NCBI RefSeq assembly: GCF_022846255.1
Contig: NZ_AP025682.1
Length of the DNA stretch: 64,000 bases
Strand: one strand, 5' to 3'
Source of the DNA: Escherichia coli
GTDB lineage: Bacteria; Pseudomonadota; Gammaproteobacteria; Enterobacterales; Enterobacteriaceae
Below, piece by piece: positions 14,065 to 38,336 of the stretch. The notes under the pieces were generated by a model. That model did no database searches. It saw only the letters and a list, made by a program, of their open reading frames with translations, and had not been told where the DNA came from. Each line of letters begins with the position of its first letter. Positions within the stretch are counted from its first letter, which is position 1. A program made the position numbers and the translations under genes.

Positions 14065-14066
14065 TT

Positions 14067-15503: not shown

Positions 15504-15603
15504 CCGTTGAATAATCAACCGGATTAATTCTCCGGTAAATAACGAAAAAACAAAATTGGCCGTTTCGGTCAGGGCCAACTATTGCCTGAAAAAGGGTAAC
15601 GAC

Positions 15604-16974: not shown

Positions 16975-17028
16975 TGTCGGATCTTCCCTTACCCCACTGC
17001 GGGTAAGGGGCTAATAACAGGAACAACG

Positions 17029-18423
17029 ATGACAAATCTAAAAAAGCGCGAGCGAGCGAAAACCAATGCATCGTTAATCTCTATGGTGCAACGCTTTTCA
17101 GATATCACCATCATGTTTGCCGGACTATGGCTGGTTTGCGAAGTGAGCGGACTGTCATTCCTCTACATGCACCTGTTGGTGGCGCTGATTACGCTGGTGG
17201 TGTTCCAGATGCTGGGCGGCATCACCGATTTTTATCGCTCATGGCGCGGTGTTCGGGCATCGACAGAATTTGCTCTGTTGCTACAAAACTGGACGTTAAG
17301 CGTGATTTTCAGCGCCGGACTGGTGGCGTTTAACAATGATTTCGACACGCAACTGAAAATCTGGCTGGCGTGGTATGGACTGACCAGCATCGGACTGGTG
17401 GTTTGCCGTTCGTGTATTCGCATTGGGGCGGGCTGGCTGCGTAATCATGGCTATAACAAACGCATGGTCGCCGTAGCGGGGGATTTAGCCGCCGGACAAA
17501 TGCTGATGGAAAGCTTCCGTAATCAGCCGTGGTTAGGGTTTGAAGTGGTGGGCGTTTACCACGACCCGAAACCGGGCGGCGTTTCTAACGACTGGGCGGG
17601 CAATCTGCAACAACTGGTCGAGGATGCGAAAGCGGGCAAGATTCATAACGTCTATATCGCGATGCAGATGTGCGACGGCGCGCGAGTGAAAAAACTGGTC
17701 CATCAACTGGCGGACACCACCTGTTCGGTGCTGCTGATCCCCGATGTCTTTACCTTCAACATTCTCCATTCCCGTCTCGAAGAGATGAACGGCGTACCGG
17801 TGGTGCCGCTGTATGACACGCCGCTTTCCGGGGTTAACCGCCTGCTAAAACGTGCGGAAGATATTGTGCTGGCGACGCTTATTCTGCTGCTGATCTCCCC
17901 GGTGCTGTGCTGTATTGCGCTGGCGGTAAAACTCAGTTCACCAGGACCGGTTATTTTCCGCCAGACTCGCTATGGCATGGATGGCAAGCCGATCAAAGTG
18001 TGGAAGTTCCGTTCGATGAAAGTGATGGAGAACGACAAAGTGGTGACCCAGGCGACGCAGAACGATCCGCGCGTCACCAAAGTGGGGAACTTTCTGCGCC
18101 GCACCTCGCTGGATGAATTGCCGCAGTTTATCAATGTGCTGACCGGGGGGATGTCGATTGTCGGTCCACGTCCGCACGCGGTGGCGCATAACGAACAGTA
18201 TCGCCAGCTCATTGAAGGCTACATGCTGCGCCATAAAGTGAAACCGGGCATTACCGGTTGGGCGCAGATTAACGGCTGGCGCGGCGAAACCGACACGCTG
18301 GAGAAAATGGAAAAACGCGTCGAGTTCGACCTTGAGTACATCCGCGAATGGAGCGTCTGGTTCGATATCAAAATCGTTTTCCTGACGGTATTCAAGGGCT
18401 TCGTTAACAAAGCGGCATATTGA
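17029..18423 (+). CDS. wcaJ: UDP-glucose:undecaprenyl-phosphate glucose-1-phosphate transferase
   Basis: 464 aa; N-terminal transmembrane segments plus C-terminal bacterial sugar-transferase domain (PGITGWAQINGWRGETD). Confidence 0.93.
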   Translation: MTNLKKRERAKTNASLISMVQRFSDITIMFAGLWLVCEVSGLSFLYMHLLVALITLVVFQMLGGITDFYRSWRGVRASTEFALLLQNWTLSVIFSAGLVAFNNDFDTQLKIWLAWYGLTSIGLVVCRSCIRIGAGWLRNHGYNKRMVAVAGDLAAGQMLMESFRNQPWLGFEVVGVYHDPKPGGVSNDWAGNLQQLVEDAKAGKIHNVYIAMQMCDGARVKKLVHQLADTTCSVLLIPDVFTFNILHSRLEEMNGVPVVPLYDTPLSGVNRLLKRAEDIVLATLILLLISPVLCCIALAVKLSSPGPVIFRQTRYGMDGKPIKVWKFRSMKVMENDKVVTQATQNDPRVTKVGNFLRRTSLDELPQFINVLTGGMSIVGPRPHAVAHNEQYRQLIEGYMLRHKVKPGITGWAQINGWRGETDTLEKMEKRVEFDLEYIREWSVWFDIKIVFLTVFKGFVNKAAY

Positions 18424-18424
18424 T

Positions 18425-19903
18425 ATGAGCTTACGTGAAAAAACCATCAGCGGCGCGAAGTGGTCGGCGATTGCCACGGTGATCATCATCGGCCTCGGGC
18501 TGGTGCAAATGACCGTGCTGGCGCGGATTATCGACAACCACCAGTTCGGTTTGCTGACTGTGTCGCTGGTGATTATCGCGTTGGCAGATACACTTTCTGA
18601 CTTCGGTATCGCTAACTCGATTATTCAGCGAAAAGAAATCAGCCACCTTGAACTCACCACGCTGTACTGGCTGAACGTTGGGCTGGGGCTTGTGGTGTGC
18701 GTGGCGGTGTTTTTGTTGAGTGATCTCATCGGTGACGTGCTGAATAACCCGGACCTGGCACCGTTGATTAAAACATTGTCGCTGGCGTTTGTGGTGATCC
18801 CCCACGGGCAGCAGTTCCGCGCGTTGATGCAAAAAGAGCTGGAGTTCAACAAAATCGGCATGATCGAAACCAGCGCGGTGCTGGCGGGCTTCACTTTTAC
18901 GGTGGTTAGCGCCCATTTCTGGCCACTGGCGATGACCGCGATCCTCGGTTATCTGGTCAATAGTGCGGTAAGAACGCTGCTGTTTGGCTACTTTGGTCGC
19001 AAAATTTATCGCCCCGGTCTGCATTTCTCGCTGGCGTCGGTGGCACCGAACTTACGCTTTGGTGCCTGGCTGACGGCGGACAGCATCATCAACTATCTCA
19101 ATACCAACCTTTCAACGCTGGTGCTGGCGCGTATTCTCGGCGCGGGCGTGGCAGGGGGATACAACCTGGCGTACAACGTGGCCGTTGTGCCGCCGATGAA
19201 GCTGAACCCAATCATCACCCGCGTGTTGTTTCCGGCATTTGCCAAAATTCAGGACGACACCGAAAAGCTGCGCGTTAACTTCTACAAGCTGCTGTCGGTA
19301 GTGGGGATTATCAACTTTCCGGCGCTGCTGGGGCTGATGGTGGTGTCGAATAACTTTGTACCGCTGGTCTTTGGTGAGAAGTGGAACAGCATTATTCCGG
19401 TGCTGCAATTGCTGTGTGTGGTGGGGCTGCTGCGCTCAGTGGGGAACCCGATTGGTTCGCTGCTGATGGCGAAAGCGCGGGTCGATATCAGCTTTAAATT
19501 CAACGTATTCAAAACCTTTCTGTTTATTCCGGCGATTGTTATTGGTGGGCAGATGGCGGGCGCAATCGGCGTCACGCTTGGCTTCCTGCTGGTGCAGATT
19601 ATCAACACCATTCTGAGCTATTTCGTGATGATTAAACCGGTTCTTGGTTCCAGTTATCGCCAGTACATCCTGAGTTTGTGGCTGCCGTTTTACCTCTCGC
19701 TGCCGACGCTGGTGGTTAGTTCTGCGCTGGGCATTGTGCTGAAAGGGCAACTGGCGCTGGGGATGCTGCTGGCGGTGCAAATAACCGCGGGCGTGCTGGC
19801 GTTTGTGGTGATGATTGTGCTGTCACGCCATCCGCTGGTAGTGGAAGTGAAGCGTCAGTTTTGTCGCAGCGAAAAAATGAAAATGCTTTTACGGGCGGGG
19901 TGA
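18425..19903 (+). CDS. wzxC: Colanic acid repeat-unit flippase (MOP/Wzx family)
   Basis: 492 aa polytopic membrane protein; operon position. Confidence 0.9.
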   Translation: MSLREKTISGAKWSAIATVIIIGLGLVQMTVLARIIDNHQFGLLTVSLVIIALADTLSDFGIANSIIQRKEISHLELTTLYWLNVGLGLVVCVAVFLLSDLIGDVLNNPDLAPLIKTLSLAFVVIPHGQQFRALMQKELEFNKIGMIETSAVLAGFTFTVVSAHFWPLAMTAILGYLVNSAVRTLLFGYFGRKIYRPGLHFSLASVAPNLRFGAWLTADSIINYLNTNLSTLVLARILGAGVAGGYNLAYNVAVVPPMKLNPIITRVLFPAFAKIQDDTEKLRVNFYKLLSVVGIINFPALLGLMVVSNNFVPLVFGEKWNSIIPVLQLLCVVGLLRSVGNPIGSLLMAKARVDISFKFNVFKTFLFIPAIVIGGQMAGAIGVTLGFLLVQIINTILSYFVMIKPVLGSSYRQYILSLWLPFYLSLPTLVVSSALGIVLKGQLALGMLLAVQITAGVLAFVVMIVLSRHPLVVEVKRQFCRSEKMKMLLRAG

Positions 19904-19975
19904 ATGGCTGTTTTCGGTTCCGGCAACGAACACAACAAACATAGCCTCACCTGGCATCAAATTTATGAGGAAAAA

Positions 19976-21256
19976 ATGAAATTACTTATTCTGGGCAACC
20001 ACACTTGCGGCAATCGCGGCGACAGCGCCATCTTGCGCGGCTTACTTGATGCCATCAACATCCTCAATCCACACGCCGAAGTGGACGTGATGAGTCGCTA
20101 TCCGGTCAGTTCTTCCTGGCTGCTCAACCGTCCGGTAATGGGCGATCCGCTGTTCCTGCAAATGAAACAACACAACAGCGCGGCGGGCGTGGTTGGGCGC
20201 GTTAAAAAAGTTCTCCGTCGCCGCTACCAGCACCAGGTATTGCTCTCACGCGTCACCGACACTGGCAAGCTGCGTAATATCGCCATCGCCCAGGGATTCA
20301 CCGACTTCGTGCGCCTGCTGTCAGGTTACGACGCCATTATTCAGGTCGGCGGATCGTTTTTTGTCGATCTCTACGGCGTTCCGCAGTTTGAACATGCGCT
20401 TTGCACGTTTATGGCGAAAAAGCCGCTGTTTATGATTGGTCACAGCGTCGGCCCGTTCCAGGATGAGCAATTTAACCAACTGGCGAACTACGTATTCGGT
20501 CACTGCGACGCGCTGATCCTGCGCGAATCGGTCAGCCTTGAACTGATGAAACGCAGCAATATCACCACCGCAAAAGTCGAACATGGCGTCGATACCGCGT
20601 GGCTGGTCGATCACCACACCGAAGACTTCACCGCCAGCTATGCCGTTCAACACTGGCTGGACGTTGCCGCACAACAGAAAACGGTGGCCATTACCCTGCG
20701 CGAACTGGCACCGTTTGACAAACGTCTCGGCACCACCCAACAAGCGTATGAAAAAGCCTTTGCCGGGGTGGTCAATCGCATTCTCGATGAAGGGTATCAG
20801 GTGATTGCGCTCTCCACCTGTACGGGCATCGACAGCTATAACAAAGACGACCGCATGGTGGCGCTCAATCTGCGCCAGCACATCAGCGATCCTGCCCGTT
20901 ACCACGTAGTGATGGATGAACTCAACGATCTGGAAATGGGCAAAATTCTCGGTGCCTGTGAACTCACCGTTGGTACGCGCCTGCACTCTGCCATTATCTC
21001 GATGAACTTTGCCACTCCGGCGATTGCCATCAACTACGAACATAAATCCGCCGGGATCATGCAACAACTGGGGCTACCAGAGATGGCAATTGATATCCGT
21101 CATTTATTAGACGGCAGCCTGCAAGCGATGGTTGCGGATACCTTAGGTCAGCTTCCGGCGCTGAACGCACGACTTAACGAAGCTGTCAGTCGCGAACGTC
21201 AGACGGGAATGCAGATGGTGAAATCTGTGCTTGAACGCATCGGGGAGGCAAAATGA
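19976..21256 (+). CDS. wcaK: Colanic acid pyruvyl transferase
   Basis: Start taken at the ATG at 19976 (MKLLILGNHTCGNRGDSAILRGL...), giving 426 aa. Confidence 0.88.
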   Translation: MKLLILGNHTCGNRGDSAILRGLLDAINILNPHAEVDVMSRYPVSSSWLLNRPVMGDPLFLQMKQHNSAAGVVGRVKKVLRRRYQHQVLLSRVTDTGKLRNIAIAQGFTDFVRLLSGYDAIIQVGGSFFVDLYGVPQFEHALCTFMAKKPLFMIGHSVGPFQDEQFNQLANYVFGHCDALILRESVSLELMKRSNITTAKVEHGVDTAWLVDHHTEDFTASYAVQHWLDVAAQQKTVAITLRELAPFDKRLGTTQQAYEKAFAGVVNRILDEGYQVIALSTCTGIDSYNKDDRMVALNLRQHISDPARYHVVMDELNDLEMGKILGACELTVGTRLHSAIISMNFATPAIAINYEHKSAGIMQQLGLPEMAIDIRHLLDGSLQAMVADTLGQLPALNARLNEAVSRERQTGMQMVKSVLERIGEAK

Positions 21257-22473
21257 AGGTCGGCTTCTTTTTACTGAAATTTCCGTTGTCGTCGGAAACC
21301 TTCGTCCTCAATCAAATTACCGCGTTTATTGATATGGGCTTTGAAGTGGAGATTGTCGCGCTGCAAAAAGGCGACACACAAAACACCCACGCGGCATGGA
21401 CGAAATACAACCTTGCCGCCAGAACCCGCTGGTTACAGGACGAACCTGCGGGCAAAGTGGCGAAACTGCGCCACCGCGCCAGCCAGACCTTACGCGGCAT
21501 TCATCGTAAAAATACCTGGCAGGCGCTCAACCTCAAACGCTATGGTGCTGAGTCGCGGAACCTGATTTTGTCTGCCATTTGCGGTAAGGTCGCAACACCG
21601 TTTCATGCCGATGTCTTTATCGCTCATTTTGGCCCTGCGGGGGTAACCGCAGCAAAACTACGCGAACTGGGTGTCATTCGCGGCAAAATTGCCACTATCT
21701 TCCACGGTATTGATATCTCCAGTCGGGAGGTGCTCAACCACTACACTCCCGAATATCAGCAACTGTTCCGCCGTGGCGACCTGATGCTACCGATCAGCGA
21801 TCTGTGGGCCGGAAGGCTGCAAAAAATGGGATGCCCGAGGGAAAAAATCGCCGTATCGCGCATGGGCGTGGACATGACGCGCTTTAGCCCGCGTCCGGTG
21901 AAAGCGCCCGCAACACCGCTGGAAATCATTTCCGTCGCACGCTTAACCGAGAAAAAAGGCCTGCATGTGGCGATTGAAGCCTGCCGTCAGTTGAAAGAGC
22001 AGGGCGTGGCATTTCGCTATCGCATCCTCGGCATTGGTCCGTGGGAACGACGCCTGCGCACCCTCATCGAACAATATCAACTGGAAGATGTGGTGGAGAT
22101 GCCGGGCTTTAAACCGAGCCACGAAGTGAAAGCGATGCTAGACGACGCGGATGTCTTCCTGTTGCCATCGGTTACAGGTGCGGATGGCGATATGGAAGGT
22201 ATTCCGGTGGCGCTGATGGAAGCGATGGCGGTCGGTATTCCGGTGGTTTCTACTCTGCATAGCGGAATTCCTGAACTGGTGGAGGCCGATAAATCCGGCT
22301 GGTTGGTGCCTGAGAACGATGCTCGCGCACTGGCGCAACGACTGGCGGCGTTTAGCCAACTGGACACCGACGAACTGGCTCCGGTCGTCAAACGTGCTCG
22401 CGAAAAAGTCGAACACGATTTTAACCAGCAGGTGATCAATCGAGAACTCGCCAGCTTGCTGCAGGCTTTATAG
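21253..22473 (+). CDS. wcaL: Colanic acid glycosyltransferase (GT4)
   Basis: 406 aa; 4-bp overlap with wcaK; GT4-type C-terminal [20 protein letters not shown]. Confidence 0.9.
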
Positions 22474-22483
22474 AGGAGAACGC

Positions 22484-23878
22484 ATGCCATTTAAAAAACT
22501 CTCCCGACGCACGTTCCTGACGGCAAGCTCGGTGCTTGCCTTCCTCCATACGCCTTTCGCCCGTGCAATTCCCGCTCAACAAAGCGTTAACATTAACGAC
22601 TACAACCCTCACGACTGGATCGCCTCATTTAAACAAGCCTTCAGCGAAGGGCAAACGGTCGTCGTGCCTGCCGGATTGGTTTGTGACAATATCAACACTG
22701 GCATCTTCATTCCTTCTGGCAAAACGTTACACATCCTCGGAAGCCTGCGCGGCAACGGTAGAGGGCGATTTGTCTTACAGGACGGCAGCCAGGTGACAGG
22801 GGAGGAGGGCGGCAGTATGCATAACATCACCCTGGATGTGCGTGGTTCTGACTGCACCATCAAAGGGCTGGTGATGAGCGGCTTTGGCCCGGTGACGCAG
22901 ATCTATATCGGCGGCAAAAACAAACGGGTCATGCACAACCTGACCATCGATAACCTGACCGTTAGCCACGCTAATTACGCCATCTTACGCCAGGGATTTC
23001 ATAACCAGATAATCGGTGCCAACATCACCAACTGTAAGTTCAGCGACTTACAGGGCGACGCTATTGAATGGAACGTGGCGATTAACGACAGTGATATTTT
23101 GATATCCGACCATCTCATTGAGCGCATTAACTGTACCAACGGCAAAATCAACTGGGGCATCGGCATAGGTCTTGCGGGAAGCACTTATGATAACAACTAC
23201 CCGGAAGACCAGGCAGTGAAAAACTTTGTCGTGGCGAATATCACGGGATCGGATTGTCGGCAACTGATCCATGTTGAAAATGGTAAACATTTTGTTATTC
23301 GTAATATCAAAGCCCGTAATATCACGCCGGATTTCAGTAAGAAAGCAGGTATTGATAACGCCACAGTTGCTATTTATGGTTGTGACAACTTTGTGATTGA
23401 TAATATTGAAATGATTAATAGTGCCGGGATGTTAATCGGCTATGGGGTAATTAAAGGCAAATATCTCTCGATACCGCAGAATTTCCGAGTGAATGATATT
23501 CAACTGGATAATACTCATCTTGCTTATAAATTGCGCGGCATTCAAATCTCCGCCGGGAATGCTGTCTCCTTTGTGGCGCTGACTAACATTGAGATGAAGC
23601 GTGCGTCGCTTGAGCTACACAACAAACCGCAACATCTTTTTATGCGCAATATCAATGTGATGCAGGAATCCTCAGTTGGACCCGCATTGAGCATGAACTT
23701 TGACATGCGCAAAGACGTTCGAGGCGTTTTTATGGCGAAAAAAGAAACACTGCTGTCTCTTGCAAATGTTCATGCGGTGAATGAAAAAGGACAAAGCTCC
23801 GTCGATATCGACAGGATTAATCACCATATTGTTAATGTGGCAAAGATTAACTTTAGATTGCCGGAACGGAGAGAGTAG
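22484..23878 (+). CDS. wcaM: Colanic acid biosynthesis protein (predicted beta-helix fold)
   Basis: 464 aa; Tat-like signal ([14 protein letters not shown]); last gene of the cps operon. Confidence 0.88.
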
Positions 23879-24052
23879 ATTTGCGACCATTCCTGGAAAA
23901 ATGGAGCCATACTTAGGAACAATGCTACTGCAATCCACAACGAAGCGGCGTAACATCACAAGTAATTCAGTAATCAATTCAGGGTAATTGATGCTGGCGA
24001 AAAAAATCGAACAAGCTATAATTCAGCAACCATTTTACAGGTGGATGAAATA

Positions 24053-24946
24053 ATGACGAATTTAAAAGCAGTTATTCCTGTAGCGGGTCTTGGGATGCAT
24101 ATGTTGCCTGCCACTAAGGCGATTCCCAAAGAGATGCTACCGATCGTCGACAAGCCAATGATTCAGTACATCGTTGACGAGATTGTGGCTGCAGGGATCA
24201 AAGAAATCCTCCTGGTAACTCACGCTTCCAAGAACGCGGTCGAAAACCACTTCGACACCTCTTATGAATTAGAATCTCTCCTTGAACAGCGCGTGAAGCG
24301 TCAACTGCTGGCGGAAGTACAGTCCATTTGCCCGCCGGGCGTGACAATTATGAACGTGCGTCAGGGCGAACCTTTAGGTTTGGGCCACTCCATTTTATGT
24401 GCACGACCTGCCATTGGTGACAATCCATTTGTCGTGGTGCTGCCAGACGTTGTGATCGACGACGCCAGCGCCGACCCGCTGCGCTACAACCTTGCTGCCA
24501 TGATTGCGCGCTTCAACGAAACGGGCCGCAGCCAGGTGCTGGCAAAACGTATGCCGGGTGACCTCTCTGAATACTCTGTCATCCAGACCAAAGAGCCGCT
24601 GGACCGCGAAGGTAAAGTCAGCCGCATTGTTGAATTCATCGAAAAACCGGATCAGCCGCAGACGCTGGACTCAGACATCATGGCCGTTGGTCGCTATGTG
24701 CTTTCTGCCGATATTTGGCCGGAACTTGAACGCACTCAGCCTGGTGCATGGGGGCGTATTCAGCTGACTGATGCCATTGCCGAACTGGCGAAAAAACAGT
24801 CCGTTGATGCCATGCTGATGACCGGCGACAGCTACGACTGCGGTAAAAAAATGGGTTATATGCAAGCGTTCGTGAAGTATGGACTACGCAACCTCAAAGA
24901 AGGGGCGAAGTTCCGTAAAGGGATTGAGAAGCTGTTAAGCGAATAA
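24053..24946 (+). CDS. galF: UTP-glucose-1-phosphate uridylyltransferase-like regulatory subunit
   Basis: 297 aa from the ATG at 24053 ([32 protein letters not shown]...); the track ORF starts at an upstream GTG. Confidence 0.93.
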
Positions 24947-25203
24947 TGAAAATCTGACCGGATGTAACGGTTGATAAGAAAATTATAACGGCAGTGAAGA
25001 TTAGCGGCGAAAGTAATTTGTTGCGAATTTTCCTGCCGTTGTTTTATATAAACAATCAGAATAACAACGACTTAGCAATAGGATTTTAGTCAAAGTTTTC
25101 CAGGATTTTCCTTGTTTCCAGAGCGGATTGGTAAGACAATTAGCGCTTGAATTTTTCGAGTTAAGCGCGAGTGGGTAACGCTCGTCACATCGTAGGAATG
25201 CAT

Positions 25204-25243
25204 GCAGTGCTCTGGTAGCTGTAAAGCCAGGGGCGGTAGCGTG
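25204..25243 (+). promoter_or_regulatory. JUMPstart element with ops site (GGCGGTAGCGTG at 25232..25243) in the O-antigen operon leader
   Basis: 39-bp block cagtgctctggtagctgtaaagccaggggcggtagcgtg, about 75 bp upstream of rfbB; near-identical to the cps-leader copy. Confidence 0.85.
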
Positions 25244-25318
25244 CATTAATACCTCTATTAATCAAACTGAGAGCCGCTTATTTCACAGCATGCTCTGAAG
25301 TAATATGGAATAAATTAA

Positions 25319-26404
25319 GTGAAGATACTTGTTACTGGGGGCGCAGGATTTATTGGTTCTGCTGTAGTTCGTCACATTATAAATAATACGCAGGATAGTG
25401 TTGTTAATGTCGATAAATTAACGTACGCCGGAAACCTGGAATCACTTGCTGATGTTTCTGACTCTGAACGCTATGTTTTTGAACATGCGGATATTTGCGA
25501 TGCTGCTGCAATGGCGCGGATTTTTGCTCAGCATCAGCCGGATGCAGTGATGCACCTGGCTGCTGAAAGCCATGTGGATCGTTCAATTACAGGCCCTGCG
25601 GCATTTATTGAAACCAATATTGTTGGTACTTATGTCCTTTTGGAAGCGGCTCGCAATTACTGGTCTGCTCTTGATGGCGACAAGAAAAATAGCTTCCGTT
25701 TTCATCATATTTCTACTGACGAAGTCTATGGTGATTTGCCTCATCCTGACGAAGTAAATAATAAAGAACAATTACCCCTCTTTACTGAGACGACAGCTTA
25801 CGCGCCTAGTAGTCCTTATTCCGCATCAAAAGCATCCAGCGATCATTTAGTCCGCGCGTGGAAACGTACCTATGGTTTACCGACTATTGTGACTAACTGT
25901 TCGAATAACTACGGTCCTTATCACTTTCCGGAAAAATTGATTCCACTAGTAATTCTTAATGCTCTGGAAGGTAAGGCATTACCTATTTATGGCAAAGGGG
26001 ATCAAATTCGTGACTGGCTGTATGTTGAAGATCATGCGCGTGCGTTATATACCGTAGTTACTGAAGGTCAAGCGGGTGAAACCTATAACATTGGCGGACA
26101 CAACGAAAAGAAAAACATCGATGTTGTGCTGACTATTTGTGATTTGTTGGACGAGATAGTCCCGAAAGAGAAATCTTATCGTGAGCAAATTACTTATGTT
26201 GCTGATCGCCCAGGGCATGATCGCCGTTATGCGATTGATGCTGAGAAGATTGGTCGCGAATTGGGATGGAAACCACAGGAAACGTTTGAGAGTGGGATTC
26301 GTAAAACGGTGGAATGGTATTTGGCTAATGCAAAATGGGTTGATAATGTGAAAAGTGGTGCCTATCAATCGTGGATTGAACAGAACTATGAGGGCCGCCA
26401 GTAA
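25319..26404 (+). CDS. rfbB: dTDP-glucose 4,6-dehydratase
   Basis: 361 aa; GTG start; [20 protein letters not shown]ossmann motif. Confidence 0.95.
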
Positions 26405-27303
26405 TGAATATCCTCCTTTTTGGCAAAACAGGGCAGGTAGGTTGGGAACTACAGCGTGCTCTGGCACCTCTGGGTAATTTGATTGCTCTTGATGTTCACT
26501 CCACTGATTACTGTGGTGATTTTAGTAACCCTGAAGGTGTGGCTGAAACAGTCAAAAGAATTCGACCTGATGTTATTGTTAATGCTGCGGCTCACACCGC
26601 AGTAGATAAGGCTGAGTCAGAACCCGAATTTGCACAATTACTCAATGCGACTAGCGTTGAATCAATTGCAAAAGCGGCAAATGAAGTTGGGGCTTGGGTA
26701 ATTCATTACTCAACTGACTACGTATTCCCTGGAAATGGCGACACGCCATGGCTGGAGATGGATGCAACCGCACCGCTAAATGTTTACGGTGAAACCAAGT
26801 TAGCTGGAGAAAAAGCATTACAAGAGCATTGTGCGAAGCACCTAATTTTCCGTACCAGCTGGGTCTATGCAGGTAAAGGAAATAATTTCGCCAAAACGAT
26901 GTTGCGTCTGGCAAAAGAGCGTGAAGAACTAGCCGTTATTAATGATCAGTTTGGTGCGCCAACAGGTGCTGAACTGCTGGCTGATTGTACGGCACATGCC
27001 ATTCGTGTCGCACTGAATAAACCGGATGTCGCAGGCTTGTACCATTTGGTAGCCAGTGGTACCACAACCTGGTACGATTATGCTGCGCTGGTTTTTGAAG
27101 AGGCGCGCAATGCAGGCATTCCTCTTGCACTCAACAAGCTCAACGCAGTACCAACAACTGCCTATCCTACACCAGCTCGTCGTCCACATAACTCTCGCCT
27201 TAATACAGAAAAATTTCAGCAGAATTTTGCGCTTGTATTGCCTGACTGGCAGGTTGGTGTGAAACGCATGCTCAACGAATTATTTACGACTACAGCAATT
27301 TAA
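26404..27303 (+). CDS. rfbD: dTDP-4-dehydrorhamnose reductase
   Basis: 299 aa; overlaps the rfbB stop (ATGA-type junction). Confidence 0.95.
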   Translation: MNILLFGKTGQVGWELQRALAPLGNLIALDVHSTDYCGDFSNPEGVAETVKRIRPDVIVNAAAHTAVDKAESEPEFAQLLNATSVESIAKAANEVGAWVIHYSTDYVFPGNGDTPWLEMDATAPLNVYGETKLAGEKALQEHCAKHLIFRTSWVYAGKGNNFAKTMLRLAKEREELAVINDQFGAPTGAELLADCTAHAIRVALNKPDVAGLYHLVASGTTTWYDYAALVFEEARNAGIPLALNKLNAVPTTAYPTPARRPHNSRLNTEKFQQNFALVLPDWQVGVKRMLNELFTTTAI

Positions 27304-27360
27304 TAGTTTTTGCATCTTGTTCGTGATGGTGGAGCAAGATGAATTAAAAGGAATGATGAA

Positions 27361-28239
27361 ATGAAAACGCGTAAAGGTATTATTTTAGCGGGTGGTTCTG
27401 GTACTCGTCTTTATCCTGTGACTATGGTCGTCAGTAAACAGCTATTACCTATATATGATAAACCGATGATCTATTATCCGCTTTCTACACTGATGTTAGC
27501 GGGTATTCGCGATATTCTGATTATTAGTACGCCACAGGATACTCCTCGTTTTCAACAACTGCTGGGTGACGGTAGCCAGTGGGGCCTGAATCTTCAGTAC
27601 AAAGTGCAACCGAGTCCGGATGGTCTTGCGCAGGCATTTATTATCGGTGAAGAGTTTATTGGTGGTGATGATTGTGCTTTGGTACTTGGTGATAATATCT
27701 TCTACGGTCACGACCTGCCTAAGTTAATGGATGCCGCTGTTAACAAAGAAAGTGGTGCAACGGTATTTGCCTATCACGTTAATGATCCTGAACGCTATGG
27801 TGTCGTTGAGTTTGATAAAAACGGTACGGCGATCAGCCTGGAAGAAAAACCGCTACAACCAAAAAGTAATTATGCGGTAACCGGGCTTTATTTTTATGAT
27901 AACGACGTTGTCGAAATGGCGAAAAATCTTAAGCCTTCTGCCCGCGGTGAACTGGAAATTACCGATATTAACCGTATCTATATGGAACAAGGGCGTTTAT
28001 CTGTTGCCATGATGGGGCGTGGTTATGCGTGGTTAGACACGGGGACACATCAGAGCCTGATTGAGGCAAGCAACTTTATTGCAACAATTGAAGAGCGTCA
28101 GGGGCTGAAAGTTTCCTGCCCGGAAGAAATTGCTTACCGTAAAGGGTTTGTTGATGCTGAGCAGGTGAAAGTATTAGCTGAACCTCTGAAAAAAAATGCT
28201 TATGGTCAGTATCTGCTGAAAATGATTAAAGGTTATTAA
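27361..28239 (+). CDS. rfbA: Glucose-1-phosphate thymidylyltransferase
   Basis: 292 aa; [16 protein letters not shown] motif. Confidence 0.95.
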
Positions 28240-28243
28240 TAAA

Positions 28244-28792
28244 ATGAACGTAATTAAAACAGAAATTCCTGATGTACTGATTTTTGAACCGAAAGTTTTT
28301 GGTGATGAGCGTGGTTTCTTTTTTGAGAGCTTTAACCAGAAGGTTTTTGAGGAAGCTGTAGGCCGCAAAGTTGAATTTGTTCAGGATAACCATTCGAAGT
28401 CTAGTAAAGGTGTTTTACGCGGGCTGCATTATCAGTTGGAACCTTATGCACAAGGAAAATTGGTGCGTTGCGTTGTCGGTGAAGTTTTTGACGTAGCTGT
28501 TGATATTCGTAAATCGTCATCGACTTTTGGCAAATGGGTTGGGGTGAATTTATCTGCTGAGAATAAGCGGCAATTGTGGATTCCTGAGGGATTTGCACAT
28601 GGTTTTTTAGTGCTGAGTGAGACGGCGGAGTTTTTGTATAAGACGACAAATTATTATCATCCTCAGAGTGATAGAGGAATAAAATGGGATGATCCAAGTA
28701 TCAATATTTCATGGCCAGTCGATTCACAAGTGCTGCTATCAGCTAAAGATAATAAGCATCCTCCATTAACAAAGATTGAAATGTATAGTTAA
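28244..28792 (+). CDS. rfbC: dTDP-4-dehydrorhamnose 3,5-epimerase
   Basis: 182 aa; cupin-fold RmlC (FGDERGFFFESF..., RGLHYQ). Confidence 0.93.
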   Translation: MNVIKTEIPDVLIFEPKVFGDERGFFFESFNQKVFEEAVGRKVEFVQDNHSKSSKGVLRGLHYQLEPYAQGKLVRCVVGEVFDVAVDIRKSSSTFGKWVGVNLSAENKRQLWIPEGFAHGFLVLSETAEFLYKTTNYYHPQSDRGIKWDDPSINISWPVDSQVLLSAKDNKHPPLTKIEMYS

Positions 28793-28823
28793 GATCACGA
28801 TAAATCTTGGAAGGGTTGCAAAA

Positions 28824-30062
28824 TTGAATAAAATAGTGAGCAAAAGTGAAATAAGGAACGTAATCCACAATGCTGGCTATATGATGATTACTCAGATAGC
28901 TTTATATGTTGCACCATTATTTATACTGAGTTATCTGTTAAAAACACTGGGGGTTGCACAGTTTGGTAATTATGCCTTAATACTATCAATCGTTGCATAT
29001 TTACAGATTATAACGGATTATGGTTTTTCTTTTAGTGCAAGTCGTGCGATCTCACAGAATAGAGAGGACAAAGAATATATATCAAAAATTTATCTGTCAA
29101 CTATGACTATCAAGTTGGCGATATGCGCTTTCTTATTCTTATTGCTCATGCTATTTTTAAATCTTTTGCCTGTGCAAGCTGAATTAAAACAAGGAATATT
29201 ATATGGATATCTTCTTGTAATAGGAAATACTTTCCAACCACAATGGTTTTTCCAAGGTATCGAAAAATTAAAAATCATAGCCCTTTCTAATGTTATATCA
29301 AGATGCGCCGCGTGTTTACTTGTATTTATCTATGTGAGGAATAGCGAGGATTTACAAAAAGCACTTTTAGTACAGTCACTTCCATTAGTAATTTCTGCGA
29401 TTGGATTAAATATATTTATATTGAAATATATCAATATTATTTTTCCGGAAAAAAAATTATTTAAGGTAATTTTAAAAGAAGGTAAGGATTTTTTTCTTGC
29501 ATCACTTTATTCTGTTATTCTCAATAATAGTGGCATTTTTCTATTAGGGATTTTTACTAATCCTGTTATTGTTGGTGTATATGCCGCCGCTGAAAAGATA
29601 GTCAAGGCCGTATTGTCGCTATTTACACCACTGACGCAAGCTATATATCCTTATAATTGTCGTAAGTTTTCACTATCCGTATTTGACGGCATTGAGGCAG
29701 CAAAAAAAACTGGTATACCAATTATAATTTTAGCATTTATAGCTGCTGTTATCGTTGCAATTACCTTACCTGTTGCAATCGACTATCTTAATTTTCCAAA
29801 AGAAACAATTTTTGTAGGTCAAATATTAAGTGCATGGATCTTTTTTGGTGTTCTTAATAATGTATTCGGCATTCAGATATTGAGTGCATCAGGAAGAAGT
29901 AAAATATATAGTAGGATGGTATTCGTATCAGCGCTTATAACATTACTTTTGATTACTCTATTATTGCAGTTTTGTAACGCCACTGGAGTGGCATGTGCAA
30001 TATTATTGGGTGAAATGTTCTTATCAATATTGTTACTTAAGCGATATAAAAAAATAATTTAA
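28824..30062 (+). CDS. wzx: O-antigen flippase (Wzx)
   Basis: Polytopic membrane protein in an AT-rich gene; start uncertain: TTG at 28824 (MNKIVSKSEIRNV...) preferred over the track ORF start at 28776, which overlaps rfbC. Confidence 0.8.
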   Translation: MNKIVSKSEIRNVIHNAGYMMITQIALYVAPLFILSYLLKTLGVAQFGNYALILSIVAYLQIITDYGFSFSASRAISQNREDKEYISKIYLSTMTIKLAICAFLFLLLMLFLNLLPVQAELKQGILYGYLLVIGNTFQPQWFFQGIEKLKIIALSNVISRCAACLLVFIYVRNSEDLQKALLVQSLPLVISAIGLNIFILKYINIIFPEKKLFKVILKEGKDFFLASLYSVILNNSGIFLLGIFTNPVIVGVYAAAEKIVKAVLSLFTPLTQAIYPYNCRKFSLSVFDGIEAAKKTGIPIIILAFIAAVIVAITLPVAIDYLNFPKETIFVGQILSAWIFFGVLNNVFGIQILSASGRSKIYSRMVFVSALITLLLITLLLQFCNATGVACAILLGEMFLSILLLKRYKKII

Positions 30063-30071
30063 GGAATAGTT

Positions 30072-31199
30072 ATGAAGAAGTTATTATTAGTGTTCGGTAC
30101 TAGGCCTGAAGCAATAAAGATGGCCTCTATCATTGAATTATTAAAAAAAGATTGTAGATTCGAATATAAAATATGTGTGACAGGCCAACATAAAGAGATG
30201 CTTGATCAAGTTATGCAAGTATTTGATGTTAAACCTGATTATAATTTACGGATTATGCAGCCTGGGCAAACATTAGTATCTGTAGCAACAAATATACTCT
30301 CACGGTTAAGTGAAGTTTTAATTATAGAAAAGCCAGATATTATACTTGTGCATGGGGATACAACGACTACCCTTGCTGCTACTTTAGCTGGGTATTACCA
30401 CCAAATAAAAGTTTGTCATGTGGAAGCAGGATTAAGAACAGGGGATATTTACTCTCCTTGGCCTGAAGAGGGCAATCGTAAAGTTACAGGGGCATTAGCA
30501 TGTATTCATTTCGCCCCAACAGAGAGATCAAAAGATAATCTCCTGAGGGAGGGGGTCAAAGTAAATAATATATTTGTAACGGGTAATACCGTCATCGACT
30601 CTTTATTTATTGCAAAAGATATCATAGATAATGACCCTAATATAAAGAACGCTTTACATAATAAATTTAATTTTCTTGATAAAAGCCGACGAGTAGTACT
30701 TATAACAGGTCATCGAAGAGAAAATTTCGGGAAAGGTTTTGAAGATATATGCTTTGCAATAAAGGAATTAGCTTTCATTTATCCTAATGTAGATTTTATT
30801 TATCCGGTGCATCTTAATCCCAATGTAATGGAACCAGTACATCGTATATTAGATAATATATGTAATATTTACCTTATTGAGCCCTTGGATTATTTGCCTT
30901 TTGTTTATTTAATGAATGAGTCATATTTAATATTGACTGATTCAGGGGGGATACAAGAAGAAGCGCCTTCGTTAGGTAAACCGGTTTTGGTTATGCGTGA
31001 TACTACTGAACGCCCTGAGGCGGTTGAGGCTGGTACTGTTGTATTAGTGGGGACTTCTAAGATAAAAATAGTAAATAAAGTAACGGAGCTATTAAACAAT
31101 GCTGATATCTACAATGCTATGTCTCTGTTACATAATCCATATGGCGATGGAACAGCTGCTCAAAAAATTCTTAATGTGCTCGCCCAAGAGCTAATTTAA
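30072..31199 (+). CDS. UDP-N-acetylglucosamine 2-epimerase (non-hydrolysing, WecB/MnaA-like)
   Basis: 375 aa; N-terminal LLVFGTRPEAIKMA and HGDTTTTLAATLAGYY, HVEAGLRTGD motifs. Confidence 0.85.
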   Translation: MKKLLLVFGTRPEAIKMASIIELLKKDCRFEYKICVTGQHKEMLDQVMQVFDVKPDYNLRIMQPGQTLVSVATNILSRLSEVLIIEKPDIILVHGDTTTTLAATLAGYYHQIKVCHVEAGLRTGDIYSPWPEEGNRKVTGALACIHFAPTERSKDNLLREGVKVNNIFVTGNTVIDSLFIAKDIIDNDPNIKNALHNKFNFLDKSRRVVLITGHRRENFGKGFEDICFAIKELAFIYPNVDFIYPVHLNPNVMEPVHRILDNICNIYLIEPLDYLPFVYLMNESYLILTDSGGIQEEAPSLGKPVLVMRDTTERPEAVEAGTVVLVGTSKIKIVNKVTELLNNADIYNAMSLLHNPYGDGTAAQKILNVLAQELI

Positions 31200-31213
31200 T
31201 TTAAGCTAAAAAT

Positions 31214-32278
31214 ATGTTATTAATTATTGCTGATTATCCAAACGAAATGAATATGCGCGAGGGAGCTATGCAACGAATAGATGCGATAGACTCTCTCATT
31301 CGAGATCGCAAGCGAGTGTATTTGAATATTTCATTCAAAAAGCATCTAGTTCGCTCAAATAGTTCCTTTAATAATGTTATAGTTGAAAATCTAAATGCAA
31401 TTATTCACAGAAACATCATAAAACAGTACATGCAAAAATCAACAACTATATATGTTCATTCTGTTTATAATTTATTAAAGGTTATAACGCTCATTGATCT
31501 AAAAAAAACAATTCTTGATATACATGGTGTTGTACCGGAAGAACTTTTGGCAGATAATAAAAAATTACTTAGTAAAGTATATAACATGGTGGAAAAAAAA
31601 GGTGTCCTTGGATGCAAAAAATTAATACACGTCAGTACAGAAATGCAAAAACACTATGAAGCAAAATATGGAGTAAACTTGGCTGAAAGGTCAATAGTGC
31701 TCCCGATTTTTGAATATAAAAATATAACCCAATCGCAAAACAAATGGACAGAAAATAAAATACGAAGTATCTATCTTGGAGGATTACAAACATGGCAAAA
31801 TATTGATAAAATGATTCAAATTTGTGATGACACAGTGATAAACAATGAAGCAGGTAAGTATGAATTCAACTTTTTCATCCCACAGAGTAACTTGGAAGGG
31901 TTTATAGATAAATATTCGTTAAAATTACATAATATCAATGCTAATGCATCTACGCTATCACGTGATGAAGTAATTCCCTTTCTAAAAGAATGTCATATTG
32001 GTTTTGTATTGCGCGATGATATAATAGTAAACAGAGTTGCGTGCCCTACAAAATTGGTTGAATATTTAGAGTGTGGTGTCGTTCCAGTTGTGCTCTCCCC
32101 ACTTATAGGTGATTTTTATTCGATGGGATATCAATACATTACTACAGAGGAAATGGCTAACAGAAGTATAAGTTTGTTGGATCTTGAAAAAATGGCTGCA
32201 CATAATTTACAAATTTTGACTTCTTATCAGAAGAGAACCTACAAGGCACAGAAAGAACTTATTGCTCAACTGTGCTGA
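31214..32278 (+). CDS. Putative O-antigen glycosyltransferase (GT-B/GT4-like)
   Basis: 354 aa; AT-rich; C-terminal PTKLVEYLECGVVPVV resembles the GT4 donor-binding region; position in the O-antigen cluster. Confidence 0.6.
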   Translation: MLLIIADYPNEMNMREGAMQRIDAIDSLIRDRKRVYLNISFKKHLVRSNSSFNNVIVENLNAIIHRNIIKQYMQKSTTIYVHSVYNLLKVITLIDLKKTILDIHGVVPEELLADNKKLLSKVYNMVEKKGVLGCKKLIHVSTEMQKHYEAKYGVNLAERSIVLPIFEYKNITQSQNKWTENKIRSIYLGGLQTWQNIDKMIQICDDTVINNEAGKYEFNFFIPQSNLEGFIDKYSLKLHNINANASTLSRDEVIPFLKECHIGFVLRDDIIVNRVACPTKLVEYLECGVVPVVLSPLIGDFYSMGYQYITTEEMANRSISLLDLEKMAAHNLQILTSYQKRTYKAQKELIAQLC

Positions 32279-32329
32279 ATTTTTTACATATATAAAATTA
32301 TGTAAGCATATCGCTGGTCAGGTAATTGT

Positions 32330-33334
32330 ATGCGTATCAAATATAAAGATAACGGTTATATATTATGTTTTCTATTATGTTTCATTTTGAGCTACTTAGT
32401 TTTACTCAAATCTGACTACTTTCCTGCTGATTTTCTGCCATATACAGAAATATACGATGGGACATACGGAGAAATCAATAATATTGAGCCTGCCTTTTTA
32501 TATTTAACACGGTTGTTTCATTATTTAAATTTCCCCTATATATTTTTTGCAATGTTAGTTTGTGCCTTATGTTTAAGTTGGAAAATAAAATATGCAAGAA
32601 AAATAATTAAAGATAGTTATATATATTTATTCTTGTATGTATATGTATCATTTTATGTGTTTTTGCATGAAATGACTCAATTGCGCATAGCAATTGCAGT
32701 CACTATGTGCTATGTGTCGGTTTATTATTACTTTTATAAAAATTGTATTAAACATGCACTGCCATGGATGGTGTTGGCTATTTTGTTTCATTACAGCGCC
32801 TTGCTTTTATTTATGTCATTATTTATATACAGTTATAGGAGGTTATTAATAGTAATTATAGGGTTTGTAATATGTATGAGCTTTTTAAACGTGTATGCAG
32901 ATACAATTGCACTATATTTGCCAAATGAAAAAATAGTAAATTATTTATATAGTATTTCATCATCATTAGACAATAGAAATGATTTGGCAATATTCAACCT
33001 GAATAATATAATATTTTTATCAATATTTATTTTGATCTTTTATCTTAGCCGATATATAAAATTAAATGATAATGAGGCGAAGTTTATTAAGTATGTGCAA
33101 TGTTCAGGAATATTAGCCTTTTGTATTTTCTTTCTGGCTAGTGGAGTCCCGGTCATTGCTTATCGAACTGCAGAGTTGCTGCGAATATTTTATCCGATGG
33201 CTTTAGTATTAATCCTTTCGCATATAAAAAATAATAATATGCGTTATTTTATTGCAGTCATTATAGTTATCCTTTCAGGCTTAATGTTGTTTATAACACT
33301 AAGGGCTGTATCAATAGTTGGTCAAGGATTATAA
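32330..33334 (+). CDS. wzy: Putative O-antigen polymerase (Wzy)
   Basis: 334 aa, very hydrophobic with about 10 predicted transmembrane helices; very AT-rich; typical position in the cluster. Confidence 0.7.
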   Translation: MRIKYKDNGYILCFLLCFILSYLVLLKSDYFPADFLPYTEIYDGTYGEINNIEPAFLYLTRLFHYLNFPYIFFAMLVCALCLSWKIKYARKIIKDSYIYLFLYVYVSFYVFLHEMTQLRIAIAVTMCYVSVYYYFYKNCIKHALPWMVLAILFHYSALLLFMSLFIYSYRRLLIVIIGFVICMSFLNVYADTIALYLPNEKIVNYLYSISSSLDNRNDLAIFNLNNIIFLSIFILIFYLSRYIKLNDNEAKFIKYVQCSGILAFCIFFLASGVPVIAYRTAELLRIFYPMALVLILSHIKNNNMRYFIAVIIVILSGLMLFITLRAVSIVGQGL

Positions 33335-34295
33335 AATGAATGTTGCTATTTTGTTGTCTACGTATAATGGCGAAAAATATTTAGAGGAACAACTGGATTC
33401 ATTGCTGCTTCAAAGTTATCAGGATTTTGTAGTGTATATCCGTGATGACGGATCATCTGATAGAACTGTAAATATAATAAACCAATACGTAATGAAAGAT
33501 AACAGATTTATTAACGTGGGTAATTCAGAAAATCTTGGTTGTGCTGCTTCGTTTATTAATTTATTAAGAAATGCTTCAGCCGATATTTATATGTTTTGTG
33601 ACCAAGATGATTATTGGCTTCCGAATAAATTACAGCGTGCTGTGGATTATTTTTCGGCTATTGATCCTTTACAACCTACCTTGTATCATTGCGATCTAAG
33701 CGTTGTTGATGAAAAACTTAATATTATACAAAATTCATTTTTGCAGCATCAGAAAATGTCAGCGTATGATTCAATGAGAAAAAATAATCTTTTCATACAA
33801 AATTTTGTTGTTGGTTGTTCATGTGCTGTTAATGCTTCACTTGCGGAATTTGTTCTTTCGCGAATTGGAGAGCAGCATGTAAAAATGATAGCTATGCATG
33901 ACTGGTGGTTAGCCGTGACTGCAAAACTTTTTGGTCGAATCCATTTTGATAATACTCAAACGATTCTTTATCGACAACATCAGGGCAATGTATTAGGTGC
34001 AAAATCATCAGGTATGATGCGTTTTATTCGATTAGGATTAAATGGGCAAGGGATTTCGCGAGTAGTATCTTTTAGAAAAAAAGTTTGTGCGCAAAATAAG
34101 CTTCTTTTAGATGTCTATGATAAAGAGTTAAATCTTGAGCAAAAAAAATCTATCAGGCTTGTAATTGAGGGCCTTAAAGAGAACTCTTCAATTGCTGACC
34201 TTTTAAAATGTTTCTATCATGGTAGCTATATGCAAGGTTTTAAACGTAATCTTGCCTTAATATATTCAGTTCTTTACACAAAAAAAAGAAGATAG
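33318..34295 (+). CDS. Glycosyltransferase family 2
   Basis: NVAILLSTYNGEKYLEEQLDSLLLQSY...IRDDGSSDRT GT2 signature; start could be the ATG at 33336. Confidence 0.8.
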   Translation: MVKDYKMNVAILLSTYNGEKYLEEQLDSLLLQSYQDFVVYIRDDGSSDRTVNIINQYVMKDNRFINVGNSENLGCAASFINLLRNASADIYMFCDQDDYWLPNKLQRAVDYFSAIDPLQPTLYHCDLSVVDEKLNIIQNSFLQHQKMSAYDSMRKNNLFIQNFVVGCSCAVNASLAEFVLSRIGEQHVKMIAMHDWWLAVTAKLFGRIHFDNTQTILYRQHQGNVLGAKSSGMMRFIRLGLNGQGISRVVSFRKKVCAQNKLLLDVYDKELNLEQKKSIRLVIEGLKENSSIADLLKCFYHGSYMQGFKRNLALIYSVLYTKKRR

Positions 34296-34304
34296 TGTAT
34301 CCTT

Positions 34305-35369: not shown

Positions 35370-35473
35370 CTCTGTTAAACTTCAAATCTTTTACAATATA
35401 TGGCATGACTATAAGCGCATTAATTGTTTTTCAAGCCGCTCTCGCGGTGACCACCCCCTGACAGGAGTAAACA

Positions 35474-36880: not shown

Positions 36881-36906
36881 TCTGATTTAATCAACAATAA
36901 AATTGA

Positions 36907-36937
36907 GGCCCGGCGTATATTATGCCGGGTTTTTTTT
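36907..36937 (+). terminator. Rho-independent terminator after gnd
   Basis: ggcccggcgtatattatgccggg hairpin followed by an 8-T tract. Confidence 0.8.
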
Positions 36938-37118
36938 ACCAATTATCTTATAGACTAAATTTCACTGCTTAATATTAACTTAATAAATATCAGCTATTCT
37001 TATAAAGAAATTCTGAATTGTTTTTCGTTGCGTTGACCATCTTACAACGTAGCGTTAAAACTTTTAACTCTTATCAGGATGCTAAAAACATCATGATTCA
37101 CAGTTAAGTTAATTCTGA

Positions 37119-38294
<1,176 letters not shown>

Positions 38295-38303
38295 CATCCT
38301 GTT

Positions 38304-38336
38304 ATCAGGGCTATTTACGCCCTGATTGTCTTTTGT
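38304..38336 (+). terminator. Rho-independent terminator after ugd
   Basis: atcagggctatttacgccctgat hairpin followed by a T-rich run. Confidence 0.7.

Follow-up and report, generated by a model that had tools for sequence, protein, structure and literature searches.

What does the short element between galF and rfbB do for the O-antigen genes, where does transcription of these genes begin, and how far does it reach? These questions are raised by a locus in a 64,000-nucleotide stretch of Escherichia coli DNA (contig NZ_AP025682.1), referred to here as the window. A previous sequence-only reading had placed a JUMPstart/ops element at 25204–25243 and regarded it as the likely start of an O-antigen transcription unit running through the AT-rich serotype-specific genes to gnd. 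The element was correctly identified. The site is a textbook JUMPstart/ops element, already known and ordinary, and it is very probably where RfaH is loaded for the O-antigen (rfb/wb) operon in this E. coli O1 strain. The features of the region are listed in Table 1.

Table 1. Features mapped in the window, with coordinates, strand and the basis of each assignment.
Feature	Coordinates	Strand	Basis
Second JUMPstart, with identical ops at 1066–1077, upstream of wza (colanic acid operon)	1039–1077	+	Rfam, 53.8 bits
galF, UTP-glucose-1-phosphate uridylyltransferase GalF	24053–24946	+	NCBIfam TIGR01105, 689 bits
galF intrinsic terminator: imperfect hairpin 24985–25042 (AUAACGGCAG...CUGCCGUUGU) and T-run	24985–25049	+	Fold, conservation, K-12 3′ ends
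O-antigen promoter block: GGATTTTCCTTGTTTC (25103–25118), 9 variable nt, TTGGTAAGACAATT (25128–25141)	25103–25141	+	Footprinting
Predicted −35 (TTGTTT), 17-nt spacer, predicted −10 (GACAAT)	25112–25117, 25135–25140	+	Putative hexamers
Predicted start (G) of the O-antigen operon, 170-nt leader	25149	+	K-12 start via ungapped 372-bp alignment
Leader stem-loop, 7 bp, loop GGGUA	25167–25185	+	Fold
JUMPstart, 39 nt, CAGTGCTCTGGTAGCTGTAAAGCCAGGGGCGGTAGCGTG	25205–25243	+	Rfam RF01707
JUMPstart hairpin, arms 25212–25216 (CUGGU) and 25226–25230 (GCCAG), loop AGCUGUAAA	25212–25230	+	Covariation
ops 12-mer, G1–G12	25232–25243	+	Exact match; base roles from PMC5995543
Cluster-specific leader segment	25244–25318	+	Similarity to other alleles ends at 25244
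O1 cluster: rfbB, rfbD, rfbA, rfbC, wzx, wecB, GT2, wzy, GT2, DUF1972 glycosyltransferase	25319–35369	+	NCBIfam and RefSeq
gnd	35474–36880	+	Annotation
ugd	37128–38294	+	Annotation
wzzB	38440–39420	+	Annotation
Terminator-like hairpin after ugd	38304–38326		Terminator scan
Terminator-like hairpin after wzzB	39443–39466		Terminator scan

The sequence, position, strand, family membership and conservation of the element, as well as the anatomy of the spacer around it, were established directly in the window. The segment 25204–25243 reads GCAGTGCTCTGGTAGCTGTAAAGCCAGGGGCGGTAGCGTG, and its final 12 bases are an exact ops 12-mer, GGCGGTAGCGTG, on the + strand of the galF–rfbB spacer; that spacer (24947–25318) measures 372 bp, as had been proposed. 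The Rfam covariance model for JUMPstart matched over its whole length (model positions 1–38 of 38) with 60.0 bits, against a gathering score of 35, and an E-value of 2.6e-11; it was the only Rfam family to match the spacer at E ≤ 1. The left end proposed earlier was one base too far 5′, giving 40 nt instead of the 39 of the canonical Hobbs & Reeves element. In addition to the full-length model match, a stem-loop is present 5′ of ops and the site lies just upstream of a polysaccharide cluster, both features of the JUMPstart family. The 12-mer satisfies the ops consensus GGCGGTAGnnTG and is the same as that of the validated rfaQ, wza and O-antigen sites of strain CFT073. All the key bases are there: C25234 (C3), G25236 (G5), T25237 (T6), G25239 (G8), T25242 (T11) and G25243 (G12).

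The pattern GGCGGTAGNNTG, searched on both strands, occurs twice in the window against 0.10 expected, a count reached by one of 100 dinucleotide-preserving shuffles. Each exact copy is in the sense orientation and falls within a non-coding polysaccharide operon leader. No ops-like site with a single mismatch was found in the 64 kb. With up to two mismatches allowed, there were 10 matches (the two exact copies and eight with exactly two mismatches) against 4.84 expected, the two-mismatch sites being at chance level. The element is also widespread among E. coli. Matches to the spacer were obtained by megablast in at least 2954 of 5426 complete genomes, and the 39-mer is at least 99% identical in at least 2178 complete genomes, and 100% identical in K-12 strains. 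With the segment from promoter to ops (25100–25243) as a blastn query, at least 4283 of the 5426 genomes were matched, at least 3773 of them over at least 80% of its length. These genome counts are lower bounds, limited by search sensitivity.

Such numbers bear on whether the 12-mer could be a chance occurrence without function. An ops is just 12 nt long, and RfaH leaves 34 ops-like sites in CFT073 coding regions unbound (PMC9765446), but a chance site would have to coincide with a 60-bit JUMPstart match in which it is embedded, with a match from promoter to ops shared by most of the complete genomes searched, and with an identical site occupied by RfaH in CFT073, besides exceeding the expected count in two sense-strand operon leaders. 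The chance reading is effectively refuted by the conservation and ChIP data, and we give it practically no credence.

The genes on either side place the element at the head of an O1 cluster. rfbB (dTDP-glucose 4,6-dehydratase; 795 bits in NCBIfam) begins with a GTG at 25319, and the cluster is followed by gndA, ugd and wzzB on the + strand, then by the his operon on the opposite strand; all the genes from ops to wzzB are co-oriented. Gene names were taken from the RefSeq annotation of the near-identical FDAARGOS_497 locus (coordinates shifted by +8946 to those of the window), where wzx and wzy are named as 'O1 family O-antigen flippase/polymerase'. The FDAARGOS_497 spacer is 100% identical, and 24000–41318 differs by 1 nt. 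The G+C content is 0.52 in galF, drops to 0.40 in the spacer (49% for the whole window), and is 0.433 in rfbBDAC, 0.322 from wzx to the last glycosyltransferase gene and 0.51 in gnd. It is 0.26–0.36 across 28500–35500, with the minimum of 0.26 reached in single 500-nt windows. The rfaH gene, normally present in E. coli genomes, is not within the 64-kb window.

Downstream of galF, the first feature of the spacer is an imperfect hairpin followed by a T-run. The hairpin has a minimum free energy of −30.3 kcal/mol (z −5.99), and none of 200 shuffles was as stable. It is closed by the inverted repeat AACGGCAG (24987–24994) and CUGCCGUU (25032–25039), after which comes UUUUAUAU. A hairpin with differing inner-stem sequences is kept in seven of eight divergent E. 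coli alleles. In K-12, galF transcripts have 3′ ends at NC_000913.3:2113334, 2113335 and 2113341 (SMRT-Cappable-seq, PMC6131387). The K-12 spacer is collinear with that of the window (372 bp, 15 mismatches, no gaps), and the three ends map to 25046, 25045 and 25039, inside the U-run. Fold stability, conservation and the K-12 3′ ends together identify this structure as the intrinsic terminator of galF. The AT-rich promoter-like sequence previously noted in the spacer must therefore be divided: a promoter is indeed found there, but the most AT-rich stretch (TTGCGA...TATATAA, 25021–25052) is the 3′ arm of the galF terminator with its T-run.

The promoter block was found by phylogenetic footprinting, not by consensus matching. 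A scan of 24500–25800 with the sigma-70 consensus gave no promoter within the spacer; its single hit (24924–24953) straddles the end of galF, and shuffled sequences gave more. Eight galF-downstream spacers were aligned, namely O1 (the window), K-12-like O16, CFT073 O6, IAI39 O7, O113, O111 and two others, and the alignment showed three islands of conservation: the terminator, the promoter block and JUMPstart. All eight spacers, which average 55% column identity, share the promoter block unchanged, and together with JUMPstart it forms the only invariant islands downstream of the terminator. Its core, CTTGTTTC-N9-TTrGGnnGACAATT, was also found 83–107 nt upstream of ops in E. albertii, Enterobacter cloacae, Pseudescherichia vulneris, Lelliottia and another Escherichia sp. 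The hexamers TTGTTT and GACAAT are the putative sigma-70 elements; they match the consensus weakly (3/6 and 4/6) and were missed by the consensus scan.

Start sites mapped in other strains agree with this placement. The K-12 operon b2041|b2040|b2039|b2038 (rfbB–rfbC) has a capped 5′ end at NC_000913.3:2113231 (SMRT-Cappable-seq, PMC6131387), which corresponds to 25149 in the window, 83 nt upstream of ops and 9 nt past the −10. In CFT073, an RNA-seq-predicted start lies 67 nt upstream of an identical ops, with a sigma-70 ChIP peak there according to the authors (PMC9765446). The equivalent window position is about 25165, 16 nt from the K-12-derived 25149. The O7 leader is reportedly 173 nt long, which would place the start near 25146, 3 nt from the K-12 value. 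None of these start estimates falls downstream of ops, the one finding that the sequence-only reading had named as contrary to its proposal; they all lie 67–86 nt upstream. A conserved weak sigma-70 promoter in the spacer thus probably drives the operon, with a start near 25149. The unit does begin in the spacer, but ops is not the start itself: it would act on elongation, at +84 in a leader of 170 nt.

In K-12, some transcripts reach the O-antigen genes from further upstream. Read-through transcripts covering galF–rfbB–rfbD originate from galF starts 2114351 and 2114416 (SMRT-Cappable-seq, PMC6131387), and since some K-12 galF transcripts pass the terminator, the spacer promoter is the main but not the sole source of transcripts crossing ops. 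It could be argued from these transcripts, and from the failure of the consensus scan to find a good sigma-70 promoter in the spacer, that most O-antigen transcription is read-through from galF promoters, in which case the spacer would lack a significant promoter and ops would serve transcripts begun at galF. We consider this highly improbable. The same data set contains the separate capped start at 2113231 for rfbB–rfbC, and the terminator hairpin is strong (z −5.99). For galF start 2114351 (the first of its two listings), 45 reads end at the terminator and 4 within 50 bp downstream of it, while 19 pass. In the CFT073 spacer, moreover, a start is predicted and a sigma-70 peak is seen, and the promoter block does not vary between alleles or genera.

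The distance from the −10 to ops is 87–96 nt in all eight aligned alleles, and 91 nt in five of them. In the window, 9 nt separate the −10 from the predicted start, a distance among the longer ones usually seen. The leader stem-loop (−10.2 kcal/mol, z −2.29) has a counterpart at the same position, with a differing sequence, in seven of the eight alleles; its covariation support is modest, the alignment being uncertain there. The leader as a whole folds marginally better than shuffles (z −1.74). A long stem between AUGCAUGCA and UGCGUGCAU that would enclose JUMPstart was discarded, as it relies on sequence 3′ of ops that is unshared among serotypes. Three small open reading frames were likewise rejected as coding: ATG 25198 (6 codons) and ATG 25202–TAA 25249 (15 codons) are absent from the E189 and O113 alleles, and a minus-strand 81-aa ORF (25001–25246) spans indel-rich variable sequence. 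The ops element lies on the same strand as rfbB, with 75 nt between its end and the rfbB start codon; the GTG start of rfbB is preceded, 9 nt upstream, by a weak GGA only as Shine-Dalgarno sequence.

The mechanism by which RfaH is loaded at ops has been described in detail elsewhere. The 12-mer is a consensus, backtrack-stabilised pause at U11, where the non-template strand forms a hairpin closed by C3:G8 and T6 flips out to occupy a pocket in the N-terminal domain of RfaH, with G5 packed beside it; changes at G4, G5, A7 or G8 abolish RfaH recruitment (PMC5995543). Once recruited, RfaH stays bound across the operon, excludes NusG, suppresses Rho-dependent termination, lowers pausing and recruits the ribosome (PMC2871177, PMC6391919), the latter on mRNAs without Shine-Dalgarno elements (PMC6391919). 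The ops fragment upstream of rfbB in K-12 (DH5alpha) is the ops element of the ops+ lux reporter, which it makes dependent on RfaH and in which RfaH variants were assayed in vivo (PMC2871177).

RfaH binding at the O-antigen operon was directly observed in CFT073. By ChIP-seq, RfaH is bound from the ops of the O-antigen leader, and from wzx through gndA, ugd and wzzB; upon deletion of rfaH, RNA polymerase occupancy 5.4 kb downstream falls to 0.1–0.34 of the wild type or less, and the operon is coated with H-NS–StpA (PMC9765446). RfaH occupancy and dependence, the transcription start and the galF 3′ ends, which were obtained in CFT073 and K-12 on identical or almost identical sequence, would carry over to the O1 strain.

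The published mechanism probably applies to the window site unmodified. Transcription would start near 25149 at the weak sigma-70 promoter downstream of the galF terminator, and RNA polymerase would pause at U11 of ops (25242) after about 94 nt. The exposed non-template GGCGGTAGCGTG would then fold into the C3:G8 mini-hairpin and offer G5 and T6 to the RfaH N-terminal domain. Remaining on the polymerase, RfaH would exclude NusG, with Rho-dependent termination suppressed and pausing reduced, and its refolded C-terminal domain would recruit a ribosome to the Shine-Dalgarno-poor rfbB start; a GTG start with only GGA before it fits compensation by RfaH for a missing Shine-Dalgarno element (PMC6391919). 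The polymerase would in this way cross about 10 kb of AT-rich, H-NS-prone serotype genes and continue into gnd–ugd–wzzB. An ops at this position explains how an AT-rich, horizontally exchanged surface-antigen operon of relevance to pathogens escapes Rho/NusG polarity and H-NS roadblocks.

The downstream end of the unit had been set at gnd. For the serotype-specific block itself, gnd is correct as the end. Transcription through this block is supported by the co-orientation of its genes, by its drop in G+C and by the terminator scan, which from ops to the end of gnd gave only weak, chance-level candidates inside genes, with no convincing intrinsic terminator before gnd. The first convincing terminators in the window follow ugd and wzzB. 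A hard end at gnd did not stand, as RfaH extends through wzzB in CFT073 and gnd of K-12 has its own capped start at 2101324 (PMC6131387). As in CFT073, RfaH-modified polymerase probably runs past gnd in the O1 strain.

The gain from this analysis is one of annotation: the regulatory layout of the window now comprises the terminator of galF, the promoter with its predicted start, the leader, the site of RfaH loading and the second site at wza. It brings no new biology, and the sole point that goes beyond the known picture is what the covarying hairpin of JUMPstart does. This hairpin, like the rest of the conserved 5′ two-thirds of the element, falls outside the published RfaH–ops mechanism.

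Rfam and Weinberg et al. (PMC2864571) both list JUMPstart among RNA motifs, with a stem-loop that is conserved. We examined the stem in 75 distinct sequences from Enterobacterales, Aeromonas, Shewanella, Vibrionaceae and Idiomarinaceae, chosen by taxon and not by structure. They came from a scan of species-representative genomes with an exact pattern, which gave at least 120 loci; about one third of these were chance matches in unrelated GC-rich genomes, and were excluded by taxon. Among the matches listed, JUMPstart-like elements were found in Enterobacterales, Aeromonas, Shewanella, Vibrionaceae, Idiomarinaceae and Pseudoalteromonas. In the 75 sequences, 94.1% of the cells of the 5-bp stem are paired, and four of the five pairs are changed on both sides (51 cells). 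The covariation score of the stem is 0.484, against 0.197 ± 0.021 for shuffles (0 of 500 reach it) and at most 0.195 for slid partners. G-U pairs are frequent in the stem, which makes the structure specific to the sense strand. In the JUMPstart-like sequences recovered, the last base of the stem is always 12 nt upstream of the U11 pause, although the search pattern permitted 4–12 nt of slack. JUMPstart alone shows no extra stability against shuffles (z −0.03), so that the case for the hairpin rests on covariation and not on stability, and the minimum-energy fold of the wza copy differs.

The hairpin opens the possibility that JUMPstart is also, or mainly, an RNA element: the nascent hairpin behind the ops-paused polymerase would tune RfaH loading, or would bind another factor. 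Acting as a pause hairpin in the exit channel, or as a block on extensive backtracking, it could tune the time window and the geometry of recruitment. This reading deserves some weight but is, in our judgement, unlikely. The strong covariation across gammaproteobacterial orders, with all controls lower, the sense-strand specificity given by the G-U pairs, the fixed 12-nt distance from stem to U11 and the listing as an RNA motif with a stem-loop in Rfam and by Weinberg et al. (PMC2864571) all argue for it, and the published RfaH studies have used the 12-mer alone, with the other 27 nt left unaccounted for. Against it, ops has been described as a backtrack-stabilised class II pause that operates with no hairpin upstream, and in vitro the 12-mer is enough to recruit RfaH. 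Taken in one sequence, the hairpin has no exceptional stability, the wza copy folds otherwise, a sense-strand hairpin could equally form in the non-template DNA, and no experiment on the role of the hairpin was found in the literature searched. The more specific proposal, that the 5′ two-thirds of JUMPstart form a functional nascent-RNA hairpin at the exit channel that prolongs the pause or caps backtracking, and so makes a composite pause module with ops, is more doubtful still. If true, hairpin and ops together would set the efficiency of RfaH loading, a layer beyond the model based on the 12-mer only.

Similarity between serotypes ends at 25244, directly after ops, in CFT073 O6, O113, O111, E189 and 95-3192, and many of the E. 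coli spacer matches in a spread sample end at query positions 296–300 (window 25242–25246). The 3′ edge of ops is the familiar left boundary of the exchangeable O-antigen cassette. The window is itself a mosaic with respect to FDAARGOS_497, with 1 nt different in the O-antigen region and about 282 nt in the colanic acid region. The exact coincidence of this edge with the end of similarity, and the mosaic structure, might be taken to mean that the element is kept mainly as a left recombination junction for swapping O-antigen clusters, with regulation secondary. This is very unlikely: a junction needs neither an exact 12-mer, nor a covarying hairpin, nor a fixed strand, and the same element precedes wza, while in CFT073 ops is also found before hly, kps and rfaQ, none of which are such swapped cassettes. 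RfaH occupancy and dependence are, furthermore, directly shown in CFT073, and the boundary is simply the end of an obligatory conserved leader.

The second JUMPstart of the window, upstream of wza, is of the same family and has an identical ops, but its 5′ half differs from that of the rfbB copy at 6 of 27 positions, and its ops lies 190 nt from the start codon instead of 87 nt at rfbB. The 190-nt distance is the same in CFT073, where the wza ops is bound by RfaH only when hns and stpA are deleted, initiation being otherwise silenced (PMC9765446).

The rfbB leader of K-12 (rfb operon b2041–b2037) has the same collinear 372-bp spacer with its 15 mismatches, an identical promoter block and JUMPstart, and shares rfbBDAC. 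K-12 is O16 with a defective cluster, whereas in the window rfbC is followed by an intact O1 cluster. The leader of CFT073 (O6) contains the same parts through 25243, namely spacer, promoter block, leader hairpin and JUMPstart/ops, with scattered substitutions upstream and an identical JUMPstart; it diverges right after ops, where its first gene, wzx, follows at 59 nt, compared with 75 nt for rfbB in the window. The O7 wb cluster (Marolda & Valvano 1998, J Bacteriol 180:3070) has the same layout: its promoter lies between galF and rmlB/rfbB, and stem-loops and JUMPstart/ops are found in its untranslated leader. The O7 allele of IAI39 can be aligned along all 372 bp, retains the same islands, and is about 88% identical over 25100–25243. 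Finally, the hlyCABD, kps and rfaQ operons have the same 12-nt consensus in their 5′ leaders and the same RfaH mechanism; in CFT073, the hly and kps 12-mers are variants (GCATG, GCATA), and their spacing to the first gene differs (PMC9765446).

The AT-rich stretch of the galF-rfbB spacer that a sequence-only reading had described as promoter-like is mostly the strong intrinsic terminator of galF. In K-12, the 3' ends of galF transcripts correspond to window positions 25039-25046, and read-through from galF into rfbB-rfbD is measurable (PMC6131387). Coordinates of this terminator and of the other features are listed in the table below.

A short stem-loop was mapped to the O-antigen leader, and hairpins of different sequence are found at the same place in 7/8 divergent E. 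coli alleles. It may correspond to the "stem-loop I" described for O7 by Marolda and Valvano (1998). Two tiny ORFs overlap the JUMPstart; neither ATG is preceded by a Shine-Dalgarno sequence and both ORFs are missing in the E189 and O113 spacer alleles. They were judged to have arisen by chance.

Features mapped in and around the O-antigen and colanic acid clusters
Feature	Position	Strand	Details
galF intrinsic terminator	24985-25049		hairpin of three helices, 25 paired positions, z -5.99
Leader stem-loop	25167-25185		~18 nt downstream of the inferred O-antigen start
Tiny ORFs (two)	25198-25249	+	ATG 25198, 6 codons; ATG 25202, 15 codons, TAA 25249
Second JUMPstart	1039-1077		ops 1066-1077, 12-mer identical to the O-antigen-leader ops
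Near-perfect sigma-70 consensus in wzy	32984-33012	+	TTGGCA, 17 nt, TATAAT; 11/12
algC RNA motif	15550-15599	+	Rfam, 78 bits
Histidine operon leader	46596-46719	-	Rfam, full-length, 131.6 bits
STnc240, enterobacterial sRNA	49017-49091	+	Rfam, full-length, 68.2 bits

The second JUMPstart heads the colanic acid operon, and its ops lies 190 nt before the wza start codon (ATG 1256). In CFT073, RfaH was bound to the counterpart of this ops only when hns and stpA were both mutated (PMC9765446). Further into the colanic acid cluster, the algC RNA motif occupies the gap between cpsB (manC) and cpsG (phosphomannomutase).

The two sides of galF differ in their relatedness to E. coli FDAARGOS_497: a single base is different over window 24000-41318 (the O-antigen/gnd/ugd/wzzB/his side), versus ~282 over 8947-24000 (the colanic acid side). 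This imbalance points to a mosaic window, made by recombination near galF.

Within wzy, whose G+C content is 26-30%, the sigma-70 match is of the type of spurious intragenic promoter expected for AT-rich, H-NS-bound DNA. Across the O-antigen cluster, promoter-like matches show no excess (51, against 48.4 in shuffles).

Finally, the matches listed from the scan of species-representative genomes for JUMPstart-like patterns include loci in "Arthrobacter sp. GMC3" (L074; NZ_PJIO01000035.1, a contig of 4155 bp with coverage of ~2) and in an "Erysipelotrichia" MAG (L102; SAAR01000054.1), where an E. coli-type O-antigen promoter block and a JUMPstart are both present with 91 nt between them. In L074 each element is the exact E. 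coli consensus. These elements are most likely Enterobacteriaceae DNA contaminating, or mis-binned into, the two assemblies.
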